Below, in pieces: positions 2,263 through 30,246 of a stretch of 64,000 bases of DNA (position 1 is the first letter of the stretch; each line of letters begins with the position of its first letter). The notes under the pieces are model-generated. The model was not told the origin of the DNA, ran no database searches, and worked only from the letters and a program-made list of their open reading frames with translations. The translations under genes and the position numbers were made by a program. The DNA lies in assembly GCA_030699905.1 (NCBI GenBank), contig JAUYKQ010000010.1, forward strand, positions 2,554 through 66,553. Reading direction: 5' to 3'. This DNA comes from a bacterium. GTDB taxonomy: Bacteria; Patescibacteriota; Minisyncoccia; Phycocordibacterales; GCA-002787175.

Positions 2263-3411
2263 ATGTTCGCAAACATCATAAGCTCTTTCGGCGCGCTTTG
2301 GAAGAGACAAAACATTGATTGGGTATTGGCAGGGTCTGTATTACCACTCGTGGTTTCCGGCCTTGTAACAATGAACTCTTTTACCGGAGAGTCGTTTTTC
2401 TTTGAACGTCAGCTTGTGTGGGCTTCTCTCGGTTTTTTTGTCATGTTTGTTTTGAGTTTTGTGGATTGGCGGTTTCTGCGGAGAACAGATGTTTTAGTTA
2501 CCCTGTTTTCAGCGACTTGCGTGGTGCTTTTTCTCTTGTTTTTTTTAGGTAAGACCGTTAAAGGCGCTCAAAGTTGGTTTGACTTCGGTTTTTTCTCTTT
2601 TCAGCCGTCTGATCCGGCAAAAATAATGGTAATACTTATTCTTGCCAAATATTTTTCCAGACGGCATATAGAAATAGCCCATATCAGGCATATTCTTGTT
2701 TCCGGTTTTTACGCTTTTACGCTCTTTCTTCTGGTTTTTCTTCAGCCGGACTTTGGTTCCGCGATCATCATTTTCATGATTTGGTTTGGAATGGTTTTGG
2801 TTTCCGGCTTGTCAAAAAAACATGTTTTTGCCGTTTTTGCCGTTGCTGTTGTGACTTTTTCCGCCTTGTGGTTTTACGTTTTTGAGCCGTATCAAAAATT
2901 GAGGATAATGAATTTTATCCATCCGCTTGCGGATGTTCGCGGTTCCGGATATAACGCGCATCAGTCAACAATAGCAGTAGGTTCCGGAGAGGTTTTAGGC
3001 AAGGGCTTGGGATATGGAACACAGTCGCGACTTAAATTTCTGCCTGAATATGAGACCGATTTTATATTCGCGGCCTTCGCGGAGGAGTGGGGTTTTGTCG
3101 GTGTTACAATACTTTTCGCTTTTTTTGCGATGGTGATTTACCGCATACTTATGAACGCGGTATATGGAGCCACTAATTTTGAAACTCTTTATGCTTTAGG
3201 TTTGGCCATTCTTTTTATGAGTCATTTTGTAATACACATCGGCATGAATATCGGTGTCTTGCCGGTTACCGGTACGACGGTGCCTTTTTTAAGCTACGGA
3301 GGCAGTCATCTGCTCACGGAGTTTTTGGGGCTTGGGATACTCATGGGAATGCGTCGTTACAACAGGGCGACGCACAGAGAGATGGTGAAAAATGAAATAG
3401 TTGGTATATGA
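2263..3411 (+). CDS. SEDS-family peptidoglycan glycosyltransferase (FtsW/RodA).
   Basis: 10-TM protein with the FtsW/RodA signature GSGYNAHQSTIAVGSGEVLGKGLGYGTQSRLKFLPEYETDFIFAAFAEEWGFVG. Start chosen at the internal MFANIIS so it does not overlap the upstream ORF. Confidence 0.85.
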   Translation: MFANIISSFGALWKRQNIDWVLAGSVLPLVVSGLVTMNSFTGESFFFERQLVWASLGFFVMFVLSFVDWRFLRRTDVLVTLFSATCVVLFLLFFLGKTVKGAQSWFDFGFFSFQPSDPAKIMVILILAKYFSRRHIEIAHIRHILVSGFYAFTLFLLVFLQPDFGSAIIIFMIWFGMVLVSGLSKKHVFAVFAVAVVTFSALWFYVFEPYQKLRIMNFIHPLADVRGSGYNAHQSTIAVGSGEVLGKGLGYGTQSRLKFLPEYETDFIFAAFAEEWGFVGVTILFAFFAMVIYRILMNAVYGATNFETLYALGLAILFMSHFVIHIGMNIGVLPVTGTTVPFLSYGGSHLLTEFLGLGILMGMRRYNRATHREMVKNEIVGI

Positions 3412-9847: not shown

Positions 9848-11675
9848 AGCCGATACTGCCTTCAAAGGAGAAGGTGTGGACTTTGACAATTAAAACTTGA
9901 AATATTAAAGATTTGAGACGTGCAAGGTCTCAAAGTCTATTCCTTCCCGGCAGTAGAGAATTAAAAATTTTCACTGCGGGAAAAAAATGATTCCACCGGC
10001 TGACTAAGACAGCCGGCAGAGCAAGTTCAAACTCTTAAAACAACAAACAAAATTTCAGCAAAAACTGTCTTTTGTTTTGTTCCGTTCTAAAAATGCAGAC
10101 AAGATGCAAACAAAACTCCGGCGGACGAGGGAGGCAACTCCTCCGTAGGTCGGAGCGATGTAGGCAATAATGTCCTCATTTCTTAAATTAGAGTTTGATC
10201 CTAGCTCAGGATGAACGCTGGCGGCGTGGATAAGGCATGCAAGTCAAGGGTGTGTGCGGAGCACACAGTTTATAAAGTTATAAAGTCATAAAGTTCATAA
10301 AGTCAGAATCTTCTGCTTTACAAACTTTTTACTTTACGAACTTGTAACTTGTGCGCTTCGCGCACAACCGGCAGACGAGGTAGTAATAAGTAGGAATGTC
10401 CCCAAGAGTCAGGCATAGCTACGCGAAAGCGTGGGTAATTCCTGATGGTCTGACCGCATCACATGGAATGTGAATTAAGTTTATCAAGTTCATAAAGTTG
10501 CAAGTTTATAAAGTAAGACCAATGCCGGATTTTTTAGGCTCGCTTTTCTTACTTGATGAACTTTATAACTTTTTACTTTATAAACTTATTTCGCCTCTCA
10601 TGTGATGCGGTCAGTAAAGTCGCAAGACGCTTTTGGAACAGCCTACTCGGTATCAGCTAGATGGTAGGGTAATGGCCTACCATGGCTATGACGCCTAGGG
10701 GGGGTGAGAGCCCGATCCCCACCGATCGGACTGAGATACGGCCGATACACCTACGGGTGGCTGCAGCCGAGAATATTCCGCAATGGGCGAAAGCCTGACG
10801 GAGCGACGCCGCGTGGTTGATGAAGTTCTTAGGAATGTAAAAACCTTTTATTAGGGAGGAAGCGTGCGAAGCACACTGTACATGACACTGATGACACGAA
10901 TGTAAAGAACGAATGACACGAATAAAATTAACAAGACTTGATTTTATTCGTGTCATTCGCATCTTCTATTCGTAGATTCGTGTCGAGTTCAGCGCGCTTC
11001 GCGCGTTTGACGTTACCTGATGAATAAGGGGTTGCTAAACTCGTGCCAGCAGCAGCGGTAATACGAGTGCCCCGAGCGTTATCCGGAATCATTGGGCGTA
11101 AAGGGTGTGTAGGCGGCTTTGTTAGTCCTCTGTTAAATTCTTCGGCTCAACCGGGGTCTTGCAGGGGATACGGCAAAGCTTGAGGGTGTGAGGGGTGAAT
11201 GGAACTCATGGTGTAGGGGTGAAATCCGTTGATATCATGGGGAACACCAAAAGCGAAGGCAATTCACTGGCGCACTCCTGACGCTGAAACACGAAAGCGT
11301 GGGTAGCGAATGGGATTAGATAATCCTTGCCCGCTAATAAAACATAGGCAAAAGGTGTCTCTCCCGAAGGCGACTTCGGGATGAAAATCTAGCTGTATCG
11401 GGGAAACTCTCTGACACTATGCGCTTACTGGCGCGTTGGAGACAATCCCGAGGGAAGTTTTCTTGCATTGAAAGAAGGTTAATTTACCTGCATTGTAATT
11501 CTTGGAGCAATGCTGGTGCGAGTAAGGGAAAAGAAAAACAACTGTCCATAGTCGGAGGGTTGGGTGTTGCGGGGCTATCTGCACATCTCTTTGTCCAGGA
11601 AAAACCACCAACAGAAAGCGTGAGTAATTCGTGAAAGCGTGAATATGTGTCCCTTACTCAATTTGTTCTTTGGGC

Positions 11676-11754
11676 GCGGATGTAGCTCAGTTGGAATGAG
11701 TATCACCTTGATAAGGTGAGGGTCGCAGGGTTCGAATCCTTGCCATCCGCTCCA
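11676..11754 (+). tRNA. tRNA-Ile(GAU)-like sequence embedded in the 5' half of the 16S site-788 intron. Cloverleaf with a slightly long variable/T region; may be a functional tRNA, a pseudo-tRNA or a tRNA-like intron domain.
   Basis: Acceptor gcggatg/catccgc, D-arm gctcagttggaatgagt, anticodon stem tcacc/ggtga with loop ttGATaa, T-loop ggttcgaatcc, 3' tcca. ~70% identical to bacterial tRNA-Ile(GAU). Confidence 0.55.
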
Positions 11755-11871: not shown

Positions 11872-12639
11872 ATGCAAAACGCGGATTCAAAATATGTGCC
11901 TTTGTCGAATCAAGTGCGAGCCATTATTCTAGGGTCAATTCTTGGAGATGGGTCGCTCAAGATTCAAAACGAGTACGCCAATGCGAATTTACAAATTCGT
12001 CATTCGGAAACTCAAAAAGACTATCTCTTATGGAAAGCGAATGTGCTTAAAGAGATAGCCGGAGATGGTAGTGTGAGCGTGCAAAAGCCGGATGGATACA
12101 GTACGAAGCCAAAGTGGAGGTTCAGGAGCAAGAGAACTCCAGCATTGACCGAACTGCATCATTTGACCTATAAGCACAATGCCTTGCGCATCAGGCGCAC
12201 ATGGTTAAATCAAATGAACGCTTTGTCGCTCGCCGTATGGTGGTGCGATGACGGTTCACTTATTGGCTACGGAGGCAGAAAAGGGGTGTTTTGTACCGAC
12301 GGCTTTGATGAAGAGTCAGTCAAAATACTTGCTCGCTATCTTGGAGTGGTTTGGAACATACGAGCGATAGTTGCTCCTGTCGGGCGAAAGCGCGATGGAA
12401 AGCAAGATCAGTATTGGCGGTTATGGATTCGTTCGCAGGAAGAATTGAAGAAATTTCTGCGTATTATCCTGCCGTACATACCTGTTTCGAGTATGCTCAA
12501 AAAAGCCATTCTACTCTATAAAGACCCTCAATTTCAACAACGCTGGATATCTGAAGTAATCAAGCTAAGTCCTTTTCCAGAATCTGTCATACTGGCGGAA
12601 TTTGAAAAAAAGAAAGCTAAATGGAATTGCTACAGATAA
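11872..12639 (+). CDS. LAGLIDADG homing endonuclease, double-motif, intron-encoded.
   Basis: Motifs LGSILGDGSL and LAVWWCDDGSL. Located inside the 16S intron. Confidence 0.85.
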   Translation: MQNADSKYVPLSNQVRAIILGSILGDGSLKIQNEYANANLQIRHSETQKDYLLWKANVLKEIAGDGSVSVQKPDGYSTKPKWRFRSKRTPALTELHHLTYKHNALRIRRTWLNQMNALSLAVWWCDDGSLIGYGGRKGVFCTDGFDEESVKILARYLGVVWNIRAIVAPVGRKRDGKQDQYWRLWIRSQEELKKFLRIILPYIPVSSMLKKAILLYKDPQFQQRWISEVIKLSPFPESVILAEFEKKKAKWNCYR

Positions 12640-12818
12640 AGATATAGTCCGGACTGCATGGAAACATGTAGAGCGAGGCAGAAATGCCCTCGCCTCCGCA
12701 TCAGGCGGAAGTAACATTTTCAACCCCAGTAGTCCACGCCCTAAACGATGTTCATTTGCTTTTCGGAGTATCGACCCTCTGAGAGGCGTAGCTAACGCGT
12801 TAAATGAACCGCCTGGGT

Positions 12819-12850
<32 letters not shown>

Positions 12851-13267
12851 AGACGGGGACTTGCACAAGCGGTGGATCATGTGGTTTAATTCGATACTAA
12901 ACGAAGAACCTTACCAAGCCTAGACATCCAAGGGAACTCCAGTAGAAATATTGGAGGCCACCACTTTGCGCGGAAGACGCAAAGTGAGTTCGTCAAGTTA
13001 TAAAGTATAAAGTTCATCAAGTTAGAGAATGTCTTACTTGATAAACTTTAAGAACTTTTGACTTGATAAACTTACTTTGTTCGCTTGCGAACAAAGTGCG
13101 GGGAGGAAGGCGAGGATGACGCCAGATCAGCATGACCCTTTGACGGCTTGGGCTACACACGTGATACAATGGCTGTTACAACACGTTTGCGACGGAGTAA
13201 TCCTGAGCTAATCGTTATAAAAGCAGCCCCAGTTCGGATTGAGGTCTGCAACTCGACCTCATGAAGT

Positions 13268-13314
<47 letters not shown>

Positions 13315-13322
13315 TCAAGTCT

Positions 13323-14262
13323 TGTACTCGGGTCGCCATGCGATCGAGTACGCTAGTTGGTGACCCGTCCTTCGTTAAAATTACGGAGGGCACGGTCCAG
13401 CTGTAATTTTTGAGCTTAATTAAATAAAAACCCCTGCTTATTTTATAAGGGGGGTTTAGGATCTAGAACTCTGAAAGCTGTTGTTGCGAGTTTCTATCTC
13501 TATTCTGCGGGACCGGCGTTGGATCTATTCAAACCAACCGCTTTCGCTTTTGGGGACTGATTTCGAACATTCTTCCAGAACTCCCTGACAAGATCCCTAA
13601 TTAATTAGGTCAGGACTATGTTACATGTTATCATATCTTGTGTTATCAGTCAAGAGCTTGAAAATTACAGCTGGACACGTTTTCGCTGAAGCTATAGCGA
13701 GGCGAGGAAATCCAACCAAGACAATTCACAGTGTCTTGAAGCGAAATACTAGTCTACTGTCCGCGAGGACTATAGATGAAGGAGTAAAGTAGCATTTCTT
13801 AGCTTGAATGCCAGTCATGGCGCATAACAGAGGTTATCCTGCGAGTACATGGAGAAACCTACTGTGTTACAAAAACTGTTATGCGTATCGTGGCATCGAG
13901 ATGAGAAAAAACAGTGTATTCGGTTACCGTGGGAGATCTCACTTGTTCTTTGTTTTTAAAGAGCAAAGTAAGCAATATATTAGGACGGGCAAAAATTTCC
14001 TAAAGTATTGATTAACAATAAGTGAGAAGTCTGCAGAGTCCGTAGTACCTATCGAAGTAAAATTTGATAGGGAAGGGACGAACTTAGAGGTTGTATGTAA
14101 TTTTTAATTTTGCATTGCTTGTCCCGTAGCGAGTTCTGCTCTGCTACAGGGATCATTTTGCATTTTGAGATTTGCATTTTAAATTTCTAAGAACCGCTAG
14201 GGTGCGGGAAAACCGCTTGCCCAGTGGTGTTTGGCTATTGAAAATAAATATCAATTGACCGA
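13323..14262 (+). other. ~940-nt ORF-less insertion in 16S near E. coli site ~1390, between cttgtac and accgcccgtca. Contains a long-range inverted repeat (13395-13411 / 13664-13680). Possibly a degenerate intron or other intervening sequence.
   Basis: Flanking conserved 16S segments gaatacgttctc...cttgtac and accgcccgtcaactcaagggagt. No ORF longer than 67 aa. Confidence 0.5.
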
Positions 14263-15842: not shown

Positions 15843-15919
15843 GCGAGTGTAGCTCAGGTGGTTAGAGCACTCCACTGATAATGGAGAGGTCCCAAGTTCG
15901 AGTCTTGGCACTCGCACCA
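15843..15919 (+). tRNA. tRNA-Ile(GAU), with encoded CCA.
   Basis: gcgagtg ta gctc aggtggtta gagc a ctcca ctGATaa tggag aggtc ccaag ttcgagt cttgg cactcgc a cca: a canonical cloverleaf. Confidence 0.85.
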
Positions 15920-26056: not shown

Positions 26057-26401
26057 ATGGCCAAATCAAAAACTCTCATAACATTAAGCATTTTTCTGAT
26101 TTTGTTGCCTTTTTTGGGTTTTCCGATATCATGGGATCGTTTTTTTGTTGCAAGCATAGGAGTTGTCTCCGGTCTTTTAGGTGTGTCATATTACAGAAAA
26201 GAAAAAGAAAAAATGAGAAGGCAAAATAGAAAAAGTGTGGCGACTGATACTCCGATATTTATGGAAAACAAGCTCGCCGGCAGTCCTTATTTTAACAAAA
26301 ACGACTCATATTCTCCTTACGGCAAAGGACTTTCCAAAGAGGGAGTGAATGATATGACTAACCAAAAAGTCCGAAATGCCGAGACCACTGAAACAAATTA
26401 A
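26057..26401 (+). CDS. Small membrane protein, hypothetical.
   Basis: ORF with an N-terminal double TM. Confidence 0.4.
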   Translation: MAKSKTLITLSIFLILLPFLGFPISWDRFFVASIGVVSGLLGVSYYRKEKEKMRRQNRKSVATDTPIFMENKLAGSPYFNKNDSYSPYGKGLSKEGVNDMTNQKVRNAETTETN

Positions 26402-27701
26402 AAGGGAAGAAAAAAAGCAAAATCCACGCGTTTTTCTTTTACTGGCCGGAGGGTCTTTTTCTTTGATGTTTGTTGCCGGTTTTTTATCTTTTTATTTTAC
26501 TCCGGAAGCGCTTCCTTTTGAATACCAATCTCTTGAAAACGGCAGGGCCAGTATTTCTTTTCCTTTGGATGTTAAAGAAGAAAAAGATAAGAAGAACAAT
26601 GTCTTTGTCGCGCATGTCGCCACACCCGAAGCAGTCAAAGCCATCTACATGACGAGCTGTGTGGCAGGCACGCCGTCTTTCCGAGAGAAACTCATTCGTC
26701 TCGCGGAAGAAACGGAAATAAACAGCATAATCATAGATGTCAAGGACTACAGCGGTCGTTTGGCTTTTCCTCCGGAGAGCGAGAGTTTGTCCCACGCTTA
26801 CCCAAGCACGTGCGCCGTGGCAGACCTAAGAGGGGTCGTTGAAGATTTGCATGACAGAGGCATTTACGTTATAGCTCGCATCACGGTTTTTCAAGATCCT
26901 CATCTGGCCATGTTGCGTCCGGACCTTGCAGTTTTGAAGGAAAGCGACCGCAGTGTCTGGAAAGACAACAAGGGCTTGTCTTTTACCGACCCCGGAGCCA
27001 GAGAAGTGTGGGATTATACAGTGCGAATAGCAAAGGAAACGCATGCTTTGGGTTTTGACGAGCTTAACTTTGACTACATACGTTTTCCTTCAGACGGTCC
27101 GATGAAAGACATTTATTTTCCCAAAAGCCAAAACCGTCCCAAAGCGGATGTCCTGGAGGATTTTTTTAAATTTCTTTCCGAAGAACTTGATTACACGGAT
27201 GACTCTGGCCATAAGCCGGTACTTTCCGCCGACCTTTTCGGCATGACCACGAACGCCGTGTCAGGTTTTGACTTAAACATAGGCCAGGTTTGGGAAAAAA
27301 CCTTGCCTTACTTTGACTATATTTCACCGATGGTCTACCCATCACACTATCCTTCCGGATTTAACGGCTGGAAAGACCCCAATAAACATCCTTACGAGAT
27401 CGTAAACTTTGCCATAAGCGAAGCTGTAAAGAAGACCGTAGCGACTTCCACCAGAGTATTTACCATAGGTTCCACTGAAATAGCTTCAACTTCTCCCGCG
27501 TTATACACCAAAAAAGCATACGATAAAAATAAAGTTCGCCCTTGGCTTCAGGATTTTGATTATGGAGGCAACTACGACATAGCGGAAGTCAAAGCGCAAA
27601 TACAGGCGGTGTATGACGTCGGTCTTTCTTCTTGGTTGCTTTGGTCGCCAAGCAATGTTTATACTCGGGGTGCCCTTTTGTCGTCTCAAGATGTTAACTG
27701 A
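26376..27701 (+). CDS. Membrane-anchored putative TIM-barrel glycoside hydrolase (GHL/DUF4015-like).
   Basis: N-terminal TM. GTPSFREKLIRLAEETEINSIIIDVKDYSG and DELNFDYIRFP blocks typical of the glycoside-hydrolase-like families. Confidence 0.4.
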   Translation: MPRPLKQIKREEKKQNPRVFLLLAGGSFSLMFVAGFLSFYFTPEALPFEYQSLENGRASISFPLDVKEEKDKKNNVFVAHVATPEAVKAIYMTSCVAGTPSFREKLIRLAEETEINSIIIDVKDYSGRLAFPPESESLSHAYPSTCAVADLRGVVEDLHDRGIYVIARITVFQDPHLAMLRPDLAVLKESDRSVWKDNKGLSFTDPGAREVWDYTVRIAKETHALGFDELNFDYIRFPSDGPMKDIYFPKSQNRPKADVLEDFFKFLSEELDYTDDSGHKPVLSADLFGMTTNAVSGFDLNIGQVWEKTLPYFDYISPMVYPSHYPSGFNGWKDPNKHPYEIVNFAISEAVKKTVATSTRVFTIGSTEIASTSPALYTKKAYDKNKVRPWLQDFDYGGNYDIAEVKAQIQAVYDVGLSSWLLWSPSNVYTRGALLSSQDVN

Positions 27702-27749
27702 ACGAAACAGAAATTTTACAAATTTACCTACATGATGTATTATAAGTGT

Positions 27750-27829
27750 GGGCCGGACTGCGGATTTGTGCCAAAAAGGAGGTGTGCTTCCCTTCTTTCT
27801 TTTAGGGTCCGCGGTTCCGGCCCTTTTTG
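27750..27829 (+). terminator. Long hairpin (gggccggactgcgg / ccgcggttccggccc) plus T5; candidate terminator for the upstream gene.
   Basis: 14-bp stem with a 45-nt loop followed by tttttg. Confidence 0.4.
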
Positions 27830-27876
27830 TATCCCGAGTTTTCATATATCTGCATCTTGAGTTATCCCCACCCTTC

Positions 27877-27904
27877 TTGACTCTATTTTAAAAAGCAGTA
27901 GAAT
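27877..27904 (+). promoter_or_regulatory. Sigma70-like promoter TTGACT-16-TAGAAT driving the candidate ncRNA.
   Basis: ttgact (27877-82), 16-nt spacer, tagaat (27899-904). Confidence 0.45.
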
Positions 27905-27911
27905 GTTTATC

Positions 27912-28301
27912 CAGGGTACATCATGAAGCACGGGTTTGTTTATTGCGGTGCGGACGTACCGCGCAAATCCTATGATGCGGGGAAAAATGCGAGGGCGATG
28001 CCATAGGCATACGCTCTCAAGAATCAAAGTTGTTATGGCACGAGAAGACGTAGTGGTGCGAGATCGTCTGGCGATGGAAGTGTTTGACGACAAAAATGGC
28101 CCGAGGAATCCATTGGAGATTCCCGGAAGCAGCGAAAGAATGGCACTCCTTAAAATGTGTCCACGGGGAGTCTCGGATAAGAGATGGCCCGAGGGGGTGA
28201 GGGATGCCGGCGGTAACACAATCTGTCGGGCTGGTTGAGAAGGTGAAGTCAGTCGGATCTTTTCCTGGCGCGAAGTGGAACTTCGCGCCAGTGTTTTTTT
28301 T
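27912..28301 (+). ncRNA. Candidate structured RNA (~390 nt), GC-richer than its flanks, promoter-to-terminator bounded. Class unknown: no RNase P, tmRNA or SRP signature found. Alternatively a 5' leader for the downstream ATPase gene, or a degraded small gene.
   Basis: Bounded by the promoter (27877-27904) and a strong terminator (28265-28301). Only low-complexity non-protein-like ORFs on either strand. Confidence 0.35.
28265..28301 (+). terminator. Strong rho-independent terminator (ctggcgcgaagt / acttcgcgccag plus T8).
   Basis: 12-bp perfect stem, 3-nt loop, tgtttttttt. Confidence 0.7.
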
Positions 28302-28413
28302 ATATTCTTTAAATAGTTGTATAATATAACCAACAACCTACTGCATACCGCCAACAACAAAAGTAAAGAAAACCCCGCTTTATTTTTTGCATAGTTGTAA
28401 GTTGTTGATTGCC

Positions 28414-30246
28414 ATGGAGGACTCCAACAAAATCACATACTTGGCCCAAACCGATTCCAGAAATCGTAAAGTGCCTTTCGGCATAAAAGCTCGCGACCGT
28501 TCGAGACATGTTTACGTTATCGGCAAAACAGGAATGGGAAAGTCCACTCTTCTTGAAAACATGGCCGTCCAGGATATGAGAGAAGGCAACGGCATGGCCT
28601 TCATAGACCCGCACGGCAAAACGGCCGAGCTTTTGCTTGATTACGTTCCGGAACACAGAATAAAAGACGTTTTGTATTTCGCCCCTTTTGACATGGAGTA
28701 TCCTATATCTTTCAATATTCTGGAAGACGTTGGCCCGGACAGACGCCACTTGGTGGCCAACGGTCTTATGAGTACTTTTGAAAAAATTTGGGTGGACGCT
28801 TGGAGCGCCCGCATGTCATATATTTTAAACAACACCATTCTCGCCCTTTTGGAATTTCCGGATGCCACGCTCCTCGGCGTAAACCGCATGTTTGCCGACA
28901 AAGAGTACAGAAAAAGAGTGGTGGACAATATAACAGACCCGTCCATCAGATCATTCTGGGTGGACGAATACGCCAAGTACACTGACCGTTACACTCAAGA
29001 GGCCACTCCGGCAATACAAAACAAAGTCGGCCAGTTTACCTCAAACCCGCTTATACGAAACATCATAGGCCAGCCACGGTCATCTTTTGACTTGCGTAAA
29101 ATAATGGACGAAAAGAAAATCGTAATCGTCAATCTCTCAAAAGGGCTCGTGGGAGAGGGGAACGCGAACTTGCTTGGCTCCATGCTTATAACCAAAATGT
29201 ACCTATCGGCCATGAGTCGCGCCGACACCCATGAAGTTGAGTCGCGCCTTCCGAATTTCTACCTTTACGTTGATGAATTTCAGTCCTTTGCCAACAAATC
29301 GTTCGCCGACATTTTAAGCGAAGCCAGAAAGTATAAACTGAATCTGACCATCGCTCATCAATATATAGAGCAAATGGAGGAAGAAGTTCGAGCCGCCGTA
29401 TTCGGCAATGTCGGCACCACGGTCGCTTTTCGTGTAGGAGCTTTTGATGCCGAGGTTTTGGAAAAAGAGTTCGCCCCGCAGTTTACGGCGGAGGATTTGG
29501 TAAATCTCGGGTTTGTCCAAATTTATTTAAAGCTCATGATAGACGGTATTTCGTCTCCGCCTTTTTCGGCGACTACTTTGCCTCCCATTGAAAAACCCCT
29601 TGTCTCTTATAAAGACCGAGTCATCGCCTCTTCGCGGGAAGTTTTCGGCCAGCCCCGTTTCAAAGTGGAGGAAAACATATGGGCTTGGCATTCTGAATTT
29701 AAATACGAAAACAATCGTTCGGATCCCAGAGATAATCGTTCGGATCTAAGAGAGAAACCGAAAAACACCAAGCCGGATATCGGCAACAGGCCGAACGTTC
29801 ACATGGAAAGGCAGAATGCTCCATATCGTGGCAACTCTTCGGAAGACAGGAGAAACCCGACAAAAAACAGAAACGAAATACCCATAAACAAAACGAATGT
29901 TTTTACAGGAAACGGAAACGCTGTTTCCGGTGGCCCCAAAAGTCCCTCTTTGCATCTTTCTAATCTTCAAGCGCCAAGAAAAGTTGACGTTGAGCAGAAA
30001 AAAGCGCCGACCGGACAGCACCTTTCTGAACTTAGAGCCGCTTTAGCGTCAGTTCTTGAATCGGAAAACAACAAAAATAACACTGCCGGCGCTCTGAAAG
30101 AGAGCCAATTTAAGAGGCCGGAACCCAGACCGGTAAATCCGCAAAGGCCTGAAGAAAAAAAAGAACCCAAAGCTCCGTCCTCCTTGGCAGGGCAGGAGGT
30201 GCCGGAAAATATTTTGAGGGAAACTTTGCGGGTGGAAGGGGAGTGA
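28414..30246 (+). CDS. P-loop ATPase of the TraD/TraG/VirD4 coupling-protein / DUF87 family, with a ~200-aa disordered, charged C-terminal tail.
   Basis: Walker A VIGKTGMGKST, Walker B LYVDEFQ, conserved TrwB-like blocks. Tail rich in R/N/P/E/K. Confidence 0.6.
   Translation: MEDSNKITYLAQTDSRNRKVPFGIKARDRSRHVYVIGKTGMGKSTLLENMAVQDMREGNGMAFIDPHGKTAELLLDYVPEHRIKDVLYFAPFDMEYPISFNILEDVGPDRRHLVANGLMSTFEKIWVDAWSARMSYILNNTILALLEFPDATLLGVNRMFADKEYRKRVVDNITDPSIRSFWVDEYAKYTDRYTQEATPAIQNKVGQFTSNPLIRNIIGQPRSSFDLRKIMDEKKIVIVNLSKGLVGEGNANLLGSMLITKMYLSAMSRADTHEVESRLPNFYLYVDEFQSFANKSFADILSEARKYKLNLTIAHQYIEQMEEEVRAAVFGNVGTTVAFRVGAFDAEVLEKEFAPQFTAEDLVNLGFVQIYLKLMIDGISSPPFSATTLPPIEKPLVSYKDRVIASSREVFGQPRFKVEENIWAWHSEFKYENNRSDPRDNRSDLREKPKNTKPDIGNRPNVHMERQNAPYRGNSSEDRRNPTKNRNEIPINKTNVFTGNGNAVSGGPKSPSLHLSNLQAPRKVDVEQKKAPTGQHLSELRAALASVLESENNKNNTAGALKESQFKRPEPRPVNPQRPEEKKEPKAPSSLAGQEVPENILRETLRVEGE

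Follow-up and report, generated by a model that had tools for sequence, protein, structure and literature searches.

In bacteria, small open reading frame (sORF) genes encode lineage-specific small proteins of under 100 amino acids, and such genes are usually missed or mis-called by annotation. Transcripts can be stabilised by 5'-terminal stem-loop leaders, as described for the ompA 5' UTR of E. coli and for the aprE and ermC leaders of B. subtilis. Dual-function small RNAs (sRNAs), e.g. S. aureus RNAIII/hld, E. coli SgrS/SgrT, and B. subtilis SR1/SR1P, carry an embedded small ORF. In AT-rich genomes, GC-rich intergenic islands are a classic signature for finding structured non-coding RNAs (ncRNAs). 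The transcription unit analysed here can be compared with all of these systems. It lies in a 64,000-nucleotide stretch of a Patescibacteriota (Parcubacteria/Paceibacterota, CPR) genome (the window, by which the whole stretch is meant), where the original prediction had placed, at 27877-28301, a GC-rich transcript of ~390 nt and of unknown class, bounded by a promoter and a terminator. The region is most likely explained in large part as a small gene, rather than as a 390-nt non-coding RNA or a new RNA class, and the unit can be read, with moderate confidence, as a small protein gene that is intact, unannotated, and an orphan, and that carries a conserved structured leader at its 5' end and a terminator of its own.

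As with sORF genes, the unit combines its own promoter and intrinsic terminator with an ORF (53-104 codons in the related loci) that falls into no Pfam or NCBIfam family; the record of the metagenome-assembled genome (MAG) has no CDS annotated at this position, and a gene caller took the opposite strand. Unlike sORF genes, it carries a leader of unusual length (~125 nt) whose conservation exceeds that of the ORF, and the ORF bodies can no longer be recognised as related between genomes that still share 55-66% identity in the flanking proteins, while leader, start codon, and terminator stay. By analogy with the ompA, aprE, and ermC leaders, a stable hairpin would lie no more than ~10 nt from the predicted 5' end, followed by an unpaired initiation region, and the hairpin of the unit is likewise conserved as structure more than as sequence. 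It differs from these leaders in that the 5' tail AUCCAGGG and a G-run behind the hairpin are conserved in sequence, which suggests a specific binding site beyond a generic protective hairpin; the 5'-proximal hairpin would then act as an mRNA stabiliser or as the binding site of a regulator. Like dual-function sRNAs, the unit is a defined transcript that runs from promoter to terminator over a few hundred nucleotides and joins a structured RNA domain with a small ORF, but it has no sequence or structure match to RNAIII/hld, SgrS/SgrT, or SR1/SR1P in Rfam. As in GC-island ncRNAs, its GC content (0.535) exceeds that of the window (0.429), and the same holds for the related locus L051 (0.52 vs ~0.32); unlike such ncRNAs, however, the relatives' ORFs are under protein-level selection, and the unit of the window is significantly folded only in the leader and the terminator.

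The unit is flanked upstream by a gene for a DUF4015 putative glycoside hydrolase (26376-27701) and directly downstream, on the same + strand, by a gene for a VirD4/TraD-like ATPase (28414-30246), after which comes a gene for a PKD/lamin-tail-domain protein. Homologues of VirD4-like coupling proteins abound in Patescibacteria, and most of their genes lie apart from virB4: a survey of 2,918 Patescibacteria genomes counted 5,713 T4CP homologues, only 148 of them near virB4 (PMC12102498). The closest relatives of the ATPase of the window come from MAGs of Taylorbacteria, Zambryskibacteria, and other Parcubacteria. The DUF4015 protein is identical to the NCBI MAG protein MDP3996350.1, the Logan contig L081 and the NCBI protein P0123 are identical copies of the window's genome, and the identical contig is present in Logan run SRR13727534. 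The protein collection searched contained no relatives at 66-100% identity, the best non-self DUF4015 match being at 66%. Comparisons were made with 80 loci carrying relatives of the ATPase and with extra loci obtained via DUF4015 homologues (L082/83, L085, L086, and L087-89). The order DUF4015 gene, gap, ATPase gene is frequent among the 80 ATPase loci. BLASTN and nhmmer searches of these 80 loci with the unit sequence returned no homologue of the unit, and the sole region matched was the promoter and leader of the ATPase gene (28310-28394), to locus L001. In at least 17 distinct Paceibacteria loci, a unit of the same kind nevertheless sits in this gap, with a DUF4015 gene on one side and an orphan VirD4-like ATPase gene on the other. 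The slot is optional, since some relatives have almost no gap between the two genes, and six (L009, L022, L042, L050, L063, and L075) carry in it a type IV pilin-like gene with the N-terminal sequence GFTLIELLVVIAIIGILSS, where a short AT-rich leader replaces the small-ORF unit; a comparison of these six pilin genes with the unit found no leader in common. The DUF4015-ATPase slot is a variable accessory position.

The boundaries of the transcript and its composition agree with what had been claimed for them. A near-consensus sigma-70-type promoter, TTGACT-16-TAGAAT, is present on the + strand at 27877-27904, with 10/12 in the consensus scan. Such a scan finds 3 promoter-like matches in the region vs 2.8 expected by chance, and the assignment draws also on the conserved arrangement: position and spacing are kept in relatives, as TTGAC(A/T)-16-TAG(A/C)AT, 5 nt, and then TCYAGGG, and the promoter stands at equal distance from this TCYAGGG 5' end in L082, L085, L086, and L024. 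The strong intrinsic terminator at 28265-28301 (+) consists of a stem of 12 pairs, eight of them G-C, with a 3-nt loop (28265-28291), followed by TG and the T8 tract at 28294-28301. The predicted transcript thus bounded runs from about 27909 to 28300, roughly 390 nt. The region is GC-richer than its surroundings, as stated; 383-nt windows outside the rRNA region have a GC content of 0.429 +/- 0.038, and the segment 27909-28291 is at the 99.9th percentile, the highest of all such segments. Its + strand has a GC skew of +0.25 and a purine content of 59%, both at about the 96th percentile.

The first third of the transcript is a structured leader (27909-28034, +), supported by the minimum free energy (MFE) fold, covariation, and a covariance model. 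It starts with the single-stranded 5' tail AUCCAGGG, followed by a long hairpin, P1 (27919-27977), whose closing helix pairs 27917-27925 with 27971-27979, then by the G-run GCGGGG, a second hairpin, P2 (27991-28018), and an unpaired A/U-rich stretch that reaches to the AUG. The MFE fold of the leader has a z of -2.55 relative to shuffles and leaves the AUG region unpaired. Homology of the leader is evident in the window, L082/83, L085, L086, and L087-89, in the order TCYAGGG, helix, GCGGGG, second hairpin, and AUGGCA. When seven leaders were aligned with MAFFT and analysed with RNAalifold, the closing helix of P1 was recovered with 89% of cells paired and compensatory changes in six of its eight pairs; the observed covariation score was reached by none of 500 shuffles, and slid controls collapsed. 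The same procedure on six diverse leaders gave 0 pairs, so that the helix is found only with closer leaders. A covariance model built from the seven-leader alignment (R1) has one match in the window, at 27909-28046 with 76.7 bits, and also finds L029, a locus absent from the training set and with a layout identical in kind. Covariation between orthologous regions, proposed in the original prediction as a check, thus supports the P1 helix of the leader. The leader is a conserved structure with covariation across relatives; the motif is absent from Rfam and marks a recurrent small-gene slot beside orphan VirD4-like ATPases. The idea of one class-less RNA of ~390 nt stands as to the bounds of the transcript, and it had overlooked the conserved structured 5' third.

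Within the leader, the top of P2 (27999-28005, UGCCAUA) is perfectly complementary, over 7 nt, to the stretch UAUGGCA that spans the start codon (28034-28040). Such an alternative pairing could occlude the AUG, and the complementarity may also be due to chance; an equivalent was looked for in the sequence of L082, and none was seen.

In the related loci, the unit has a recurrent layout. Its 5' part has a -10 box, a 5' end of the form UCYAG (ATCCAG or a close variant), P1, and usually P2; its 3' part has an unpaired A-rich stretch, the AUG, an ORF of 53-104 codons, the terminator, and then the TATAAT box of the ATPase gene itself. The ORF fills the space between leader and terminator in the window and in 16 other loci, and in the related loci the terminator lies 6-37 nt beyond the stop codon. 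The AUG falls in one aligned column in the window, L082, L085, L086, L087, and L024, and likewise in L020, L011, and L046. The start is AUGGCA in the window and in L082, L085, L086, L087, L020, L011, and L035, with products that begin MAR, MAK, or MAA. Gene callers give small + strand genes in relatives, and Shine-Dalgarno (SD) motifs precede the AUG in four units (L035, L051, L007, and L001). The longest ATG-initiated ORF exceeds that of dinucleotide shuffles in 13 of 13 units (p of 0.01-0.11 each), with a combined Fisher value of 4.5e-7 that is optimistic because the 13 units were chosen by eye.

For three pairs of relatives, substitution patterns show protein-type evolution of the small ORF. 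For L082 and L085, pN is 0.20 and pS 0.58 (pN/pS 0.34), and within a conserved C-terminal block of 38 codons the differences at codon positions 1, 2, and 3 number 8, 1, and 15, the first-position changes including synonymous ones in Leu and Arg codons. For L018 and L079 the values are 0.38 and 0.74 (pN/pS 0.51), and for L086 and L007 they are 0.42 and 0.64 (pN/pS 0.66). A conserved protein-coding signal in relatives, which the original prediction had named as an observation that would speak against it, is therefore present in the relatives' ORFs (three pairs, pN/pS 0.34-0.66). The small products of the relatives are hydrophilic and mostly basic, with a pI of at least 9.6 in 11 of 17, and nearly all of the ORFs are mutually unalignable.

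In the window, the candidate small protein gene occupies 28035-28238 on the + strand (67 codons plus TGA; MAREDVVVRDRLAMEVFDDKNGPRNPLEIPGSSERMALLKMCPRGVSDKRWPEGVRDAGGNTICRAG). The frame is open from a TTG start at 27936 (100 aa, 27936-28238), and the start at the ATG of 28035, the aligned AUG, gives 67 aa; the stop lies 26 nt upstream of the terminator. The product has a predicted mass of 7.4 kDa and a predicted pI of 7.8, is hydrophilic, shares a Met-Ala-Arg start with those of L082, L085, and L087, and includes the tryptic peptides LAMEVFDDK and NGPRNPLEIPGSSER. Of the six frames, this one scores best in codon usage, although it ranks at the 11th percentile when set among real genes and 11-13% of spurious stop-free frames score as high. 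G at the first codon position exceeds G at the second and third, and T at the first is low, both in keeping with a coding frame. The GC content at the three positions (0.63/0.49/0.54) is atypical when set against the coding sequences of the genome (0.47/0.36/0.46). The longest ATG-initiated ORF is longer than expected from dinucleotide shuffles (p = 0.03), and low T on the + strand makes long stop-free frames frequent by chance. The ORF has no SD motif, which is normal for this genome, since 33 of the 38 long genes of the window also lack one (SD-like motif in 5/38). As RNA, the segment 28035-28262 folds no better than shuffles (z -0.54). From this evidence, and from the behaviour of the relatives, we infer that the window's own ORF is translated.

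Searches for homologues of this ORF returned none in a metagenome tblastn scan with the 100-aa frame and no family in Pfam or NCBIfam. HMMER against 1.84 billion representatives gave only two matches, both to tandem-repeat proteins with summed scores, and these were judged artefacts. No similarity was found to the relatives' small ORFs in any frame; in the reverse direction, a search for a frameshifted pseudogene with the relatives' small proteins (tblastn against all frames of the unit) gave chance-level matches only. An exact-sequence look-up in the protein collection found neither the products of the + strand starts at 27936, 27972, 28035, and 28096 nor that of the - strand ORF. The AlphaFold2 single-sequence model of the product is poor (pLDDT 55, no helices).

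That only low-complexity ORFs occur on either strand was imprecise, as the + strand holds the 100/67-aa ORF and the - strand one of 172 aa (27842-28360). The latter was rejected as a gene: it spans promoter and terminator, has a codon score of about 0 and no family match, and lacks a consistent counterpart among relatives, 11 of 12 of which have only reverse-strand ORFs of 11-61 aa in their units. On the identical contig L081, a gene caller reports a - strand ORF of 165 aa at 2741-3238, equivalent to 27842-28339 of the window and running across promoter, unit, and terminator; this call is likely an annotation artefact.

Under the preferred reading as a small protein gene, transcription would start at about 27909-27911 from the unit's own sigma-70-type promoter, and the unit would be monocistronic. 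The first ~125 nt of the mRNA would form the leader, with AUCCAGGG at the 5' end, P1 closed by its covarying helix, and P2 as the second hairpin. Translation would begin at the unpaired AUG of 28035 without a Shine-Dalgarno sequence, as in most genes of the genome, and would yield a hydrophilic protein of 67 residues, lineage-specific and of a very rapidly diverging kind. The mRNA would end at the strong intrinsic terminator 26 nt past the stop codon, and the ATPase gene would use its own promoter. Judging from their conserved adjacency, the mostly basic small proteins may work together with the neighbouring orphan ATPase, which resembles coupling proteins of type IV secretion systems. The basic products of the relatives and the adjacency of the ATPase suggest an accessory factor that binds nucleic acid or the ATPase. 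If this is correct, the unit may hint at an accessory factor of the VirD4-like ATPase, and the leader motif, the stable frame around diverging ORF bodies, and a GC content uncoupled from that of the genome could guide the annotation of small genes in CPR bacteria.

Among the other explanations, the one that survives best, although unlikely, is a Paceibacteria-specific family of structured RNAs, non-coding or dual-function, to which the whole transcript of ~390 nt would belong; its conserved 5' domain and its GC-rich body would both function as RNA, and the ORF would be incidental or secondary. It draws on composition above all: besides the first rank of the 383-nt segment in GC content outside the rRNA region, the relatives' units are GC islands independent of genome GC. 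The small-ORF units of 16 loci have a GC content of 0.54 +/- 0.02 next to ATPase genes that range from 0.31 to 0.56, and the GC content at third codon positions (GC3) of small ORF and neighbouring ATPase gene is uncorrelated (r 0.03). In L051, positions 794-1150 form a sharp GC island of 0.52-0.53 in a background of 0.30-0.35, with a GC3 of 0.55 vs 0.18. A fixed GC content together with uncorrelated GC3 suggests selection at the RNA level; the GC constancy is unexplained by a plain coding model and thereby keeps a dual-function or RNA-level role alive. The full-length unit has a fold z of -3.0, and structure is also seen in the ORF parts of several relatives (mean z -1.4), strongly so in L046 (-5.3). 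Moreover, the ORF of the window is an orphan, its codon score is unconvincing, and its structure model is poor. Against such an RNA stand the shuffle-like fold of the window's ORF part, the protein-type substitution patterns of the three pairs of relatives, and a start codon that is conserved and kept unpaired; nor is there a conserved RNA body, because nothing outside the leader is alignable between loci. A novel sRNA of ~390 nt, one of the classes originally proposed, is thus not favoured, as significant structure is limited to the first ~125 nt and the terminator, and the counterparts in relatives are protein-coding.

Searches for known RNA families bear on the same explanation. Rfam 15, applied to the whole window at gathering scores, matched nothing at the unit, its matches being rRNA, tRNA, and a domain of a group II intron in other parts of the window; at E<=10 the segment 27700-28450 gave only chance matches of miRNA and snoRNA type (15-18 bits). 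This comparison covered RNase P, tmRNA, SRP, 6S, riboswitches, and large ncRNAs (OLE, GOLLD, ROOL, and raiA). ARAGORN found no tmRNA or tRNA in the unit, and Rfam found no match in the gaps of 16 related loci. A by-eye resemblance of GGUGAGGGAUGCCGGCGGUAAC and AUGGCCCG to the S domain of RNase P was dropped, as cmscan gave no RNase P match at E<=10. The earlier impression that RNase P, tmRNA, and SRP features are missing is thereby borne out by Rfam at both thresholds and by ARAGORN, and the match to a known family that might have overturned the original prediction did not appear.

A combined form can also be conceived, in which these are bifunctional transcripts specific to Paceibacteria: the leader (UCYAGGG, P1, G-run, and P2), as a new cis-regulatory motif, would control a hypervariable and mostly basic small protein that partners with the ATPase, and the body would owe its GC content of ~0.54, whatever that of the genome, to selection on the RNA. 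This is a speculative proposal, to which a low probability is given.

Quite improbable is a decaying remnant, i.e. a unit in which promoter, leader, and terminator persist while the ORF body, through drift or replacement, has lost the ability to encode a functional protein. Such decay would account for the want of similarity to any ORF of the related loci, for a codon score at the low end, for the low AlphaFold confidence, and for a pI of 7.8 that contrasts with the mostly basic products of relatives. Dissimilarity is, however, the norm for this small gene, because the relatives' own ORFs are nearly all mutually unalignable. The reading frame runs uninterrupted from the conserved AUG to a stop 26 nt ahead of the terminator, as in the intact relatives, and the excess of G and shortage of T at first codon positions agree with a coding frame. 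Of the decayed small basic protein gene that had been put forward as one possibility, the small protein is now the best-supported reading; no sign was seen that it is decayed or basic, the ORF of the window being intact and the predicted pI of its product 7.8.

A role as a long 5' leader or attenuator for the VirD4-like ATPase gene, with read-through of the terminator controlling expression, is very improbable: the unit does share the strand of the ATPase gene and lies directly upstream of it, in a conserved arrangement, but the terminator is strong (12 bp, U8), an independent TATAAT box follows it in the window (in the block shared with L001) and in all relatives inspected, many relatives are without the unit or have a pilin gene in the slot, and no alternative antiterminator pairing was seen in the folds. 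The proposal of a leader for the TraD-like ATPase gene at 28414 is thus not supported, in view of the conserved TATAAT box between terminator and ATPase start, which in the window is at 28320-28325. The segment 28310-28394 is 87% identical to L001 and includes a perfect block of 39 nt, while the flanking proteins are only ~65% identical; it carries the ATPase promoter and its ~90-nt 5' UTR, at whose 5' side AACCAACAACCUACUGCAUA shows partial complementarity to UGCAUAGUUGUAAGUUGUUG, just before the ATG. A TATAAT-like box between terminator and ATPase ATG was seen in every related locus inspected, and in other relatives it is often just 6-8 nt from the ATG, a distance that suggests leaderless ATPase mRNAs.

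A second structure lies in the gap between the DUF4015 stop codon and the unit. It is an extended hairpin of ~80 nt (27750-27823) with a U-tail to 27828, preceded by a promoter-like TTTACA-17-TATTAT (27715-27743). Its basal GGCCGG/CCGGCC stem has a bulged U, and the inner part has a purine-rich 5' arm and a pyrimidine-rich 3' arm. The hairpin is conserved in eight loci (the window, L001, L021, L024, L029, L082, L085, and L086), with compensatory changes in 8 of 17 pairs; Rfam gave only chance miRNA-like matches to it. It may be merely the terminator of the DUF4015 gene, or a separate small RNA. Elsewhere in the window, Rfam matches the 16S rRNA gene in two parts, at 10183-11392 and at 12576-13354, and in the ~1.2 kb between them a tRNA-Ile(GAT) is called at 11676-11754; a second tRNA-Ile(GAT) is found at 15843-15919. 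A match to the group II intron D1-D4 lies at 14009-14078, and the 3' end of the LSU rRNA (542-930) looks expanded, with 389 nt for 257 model positions.
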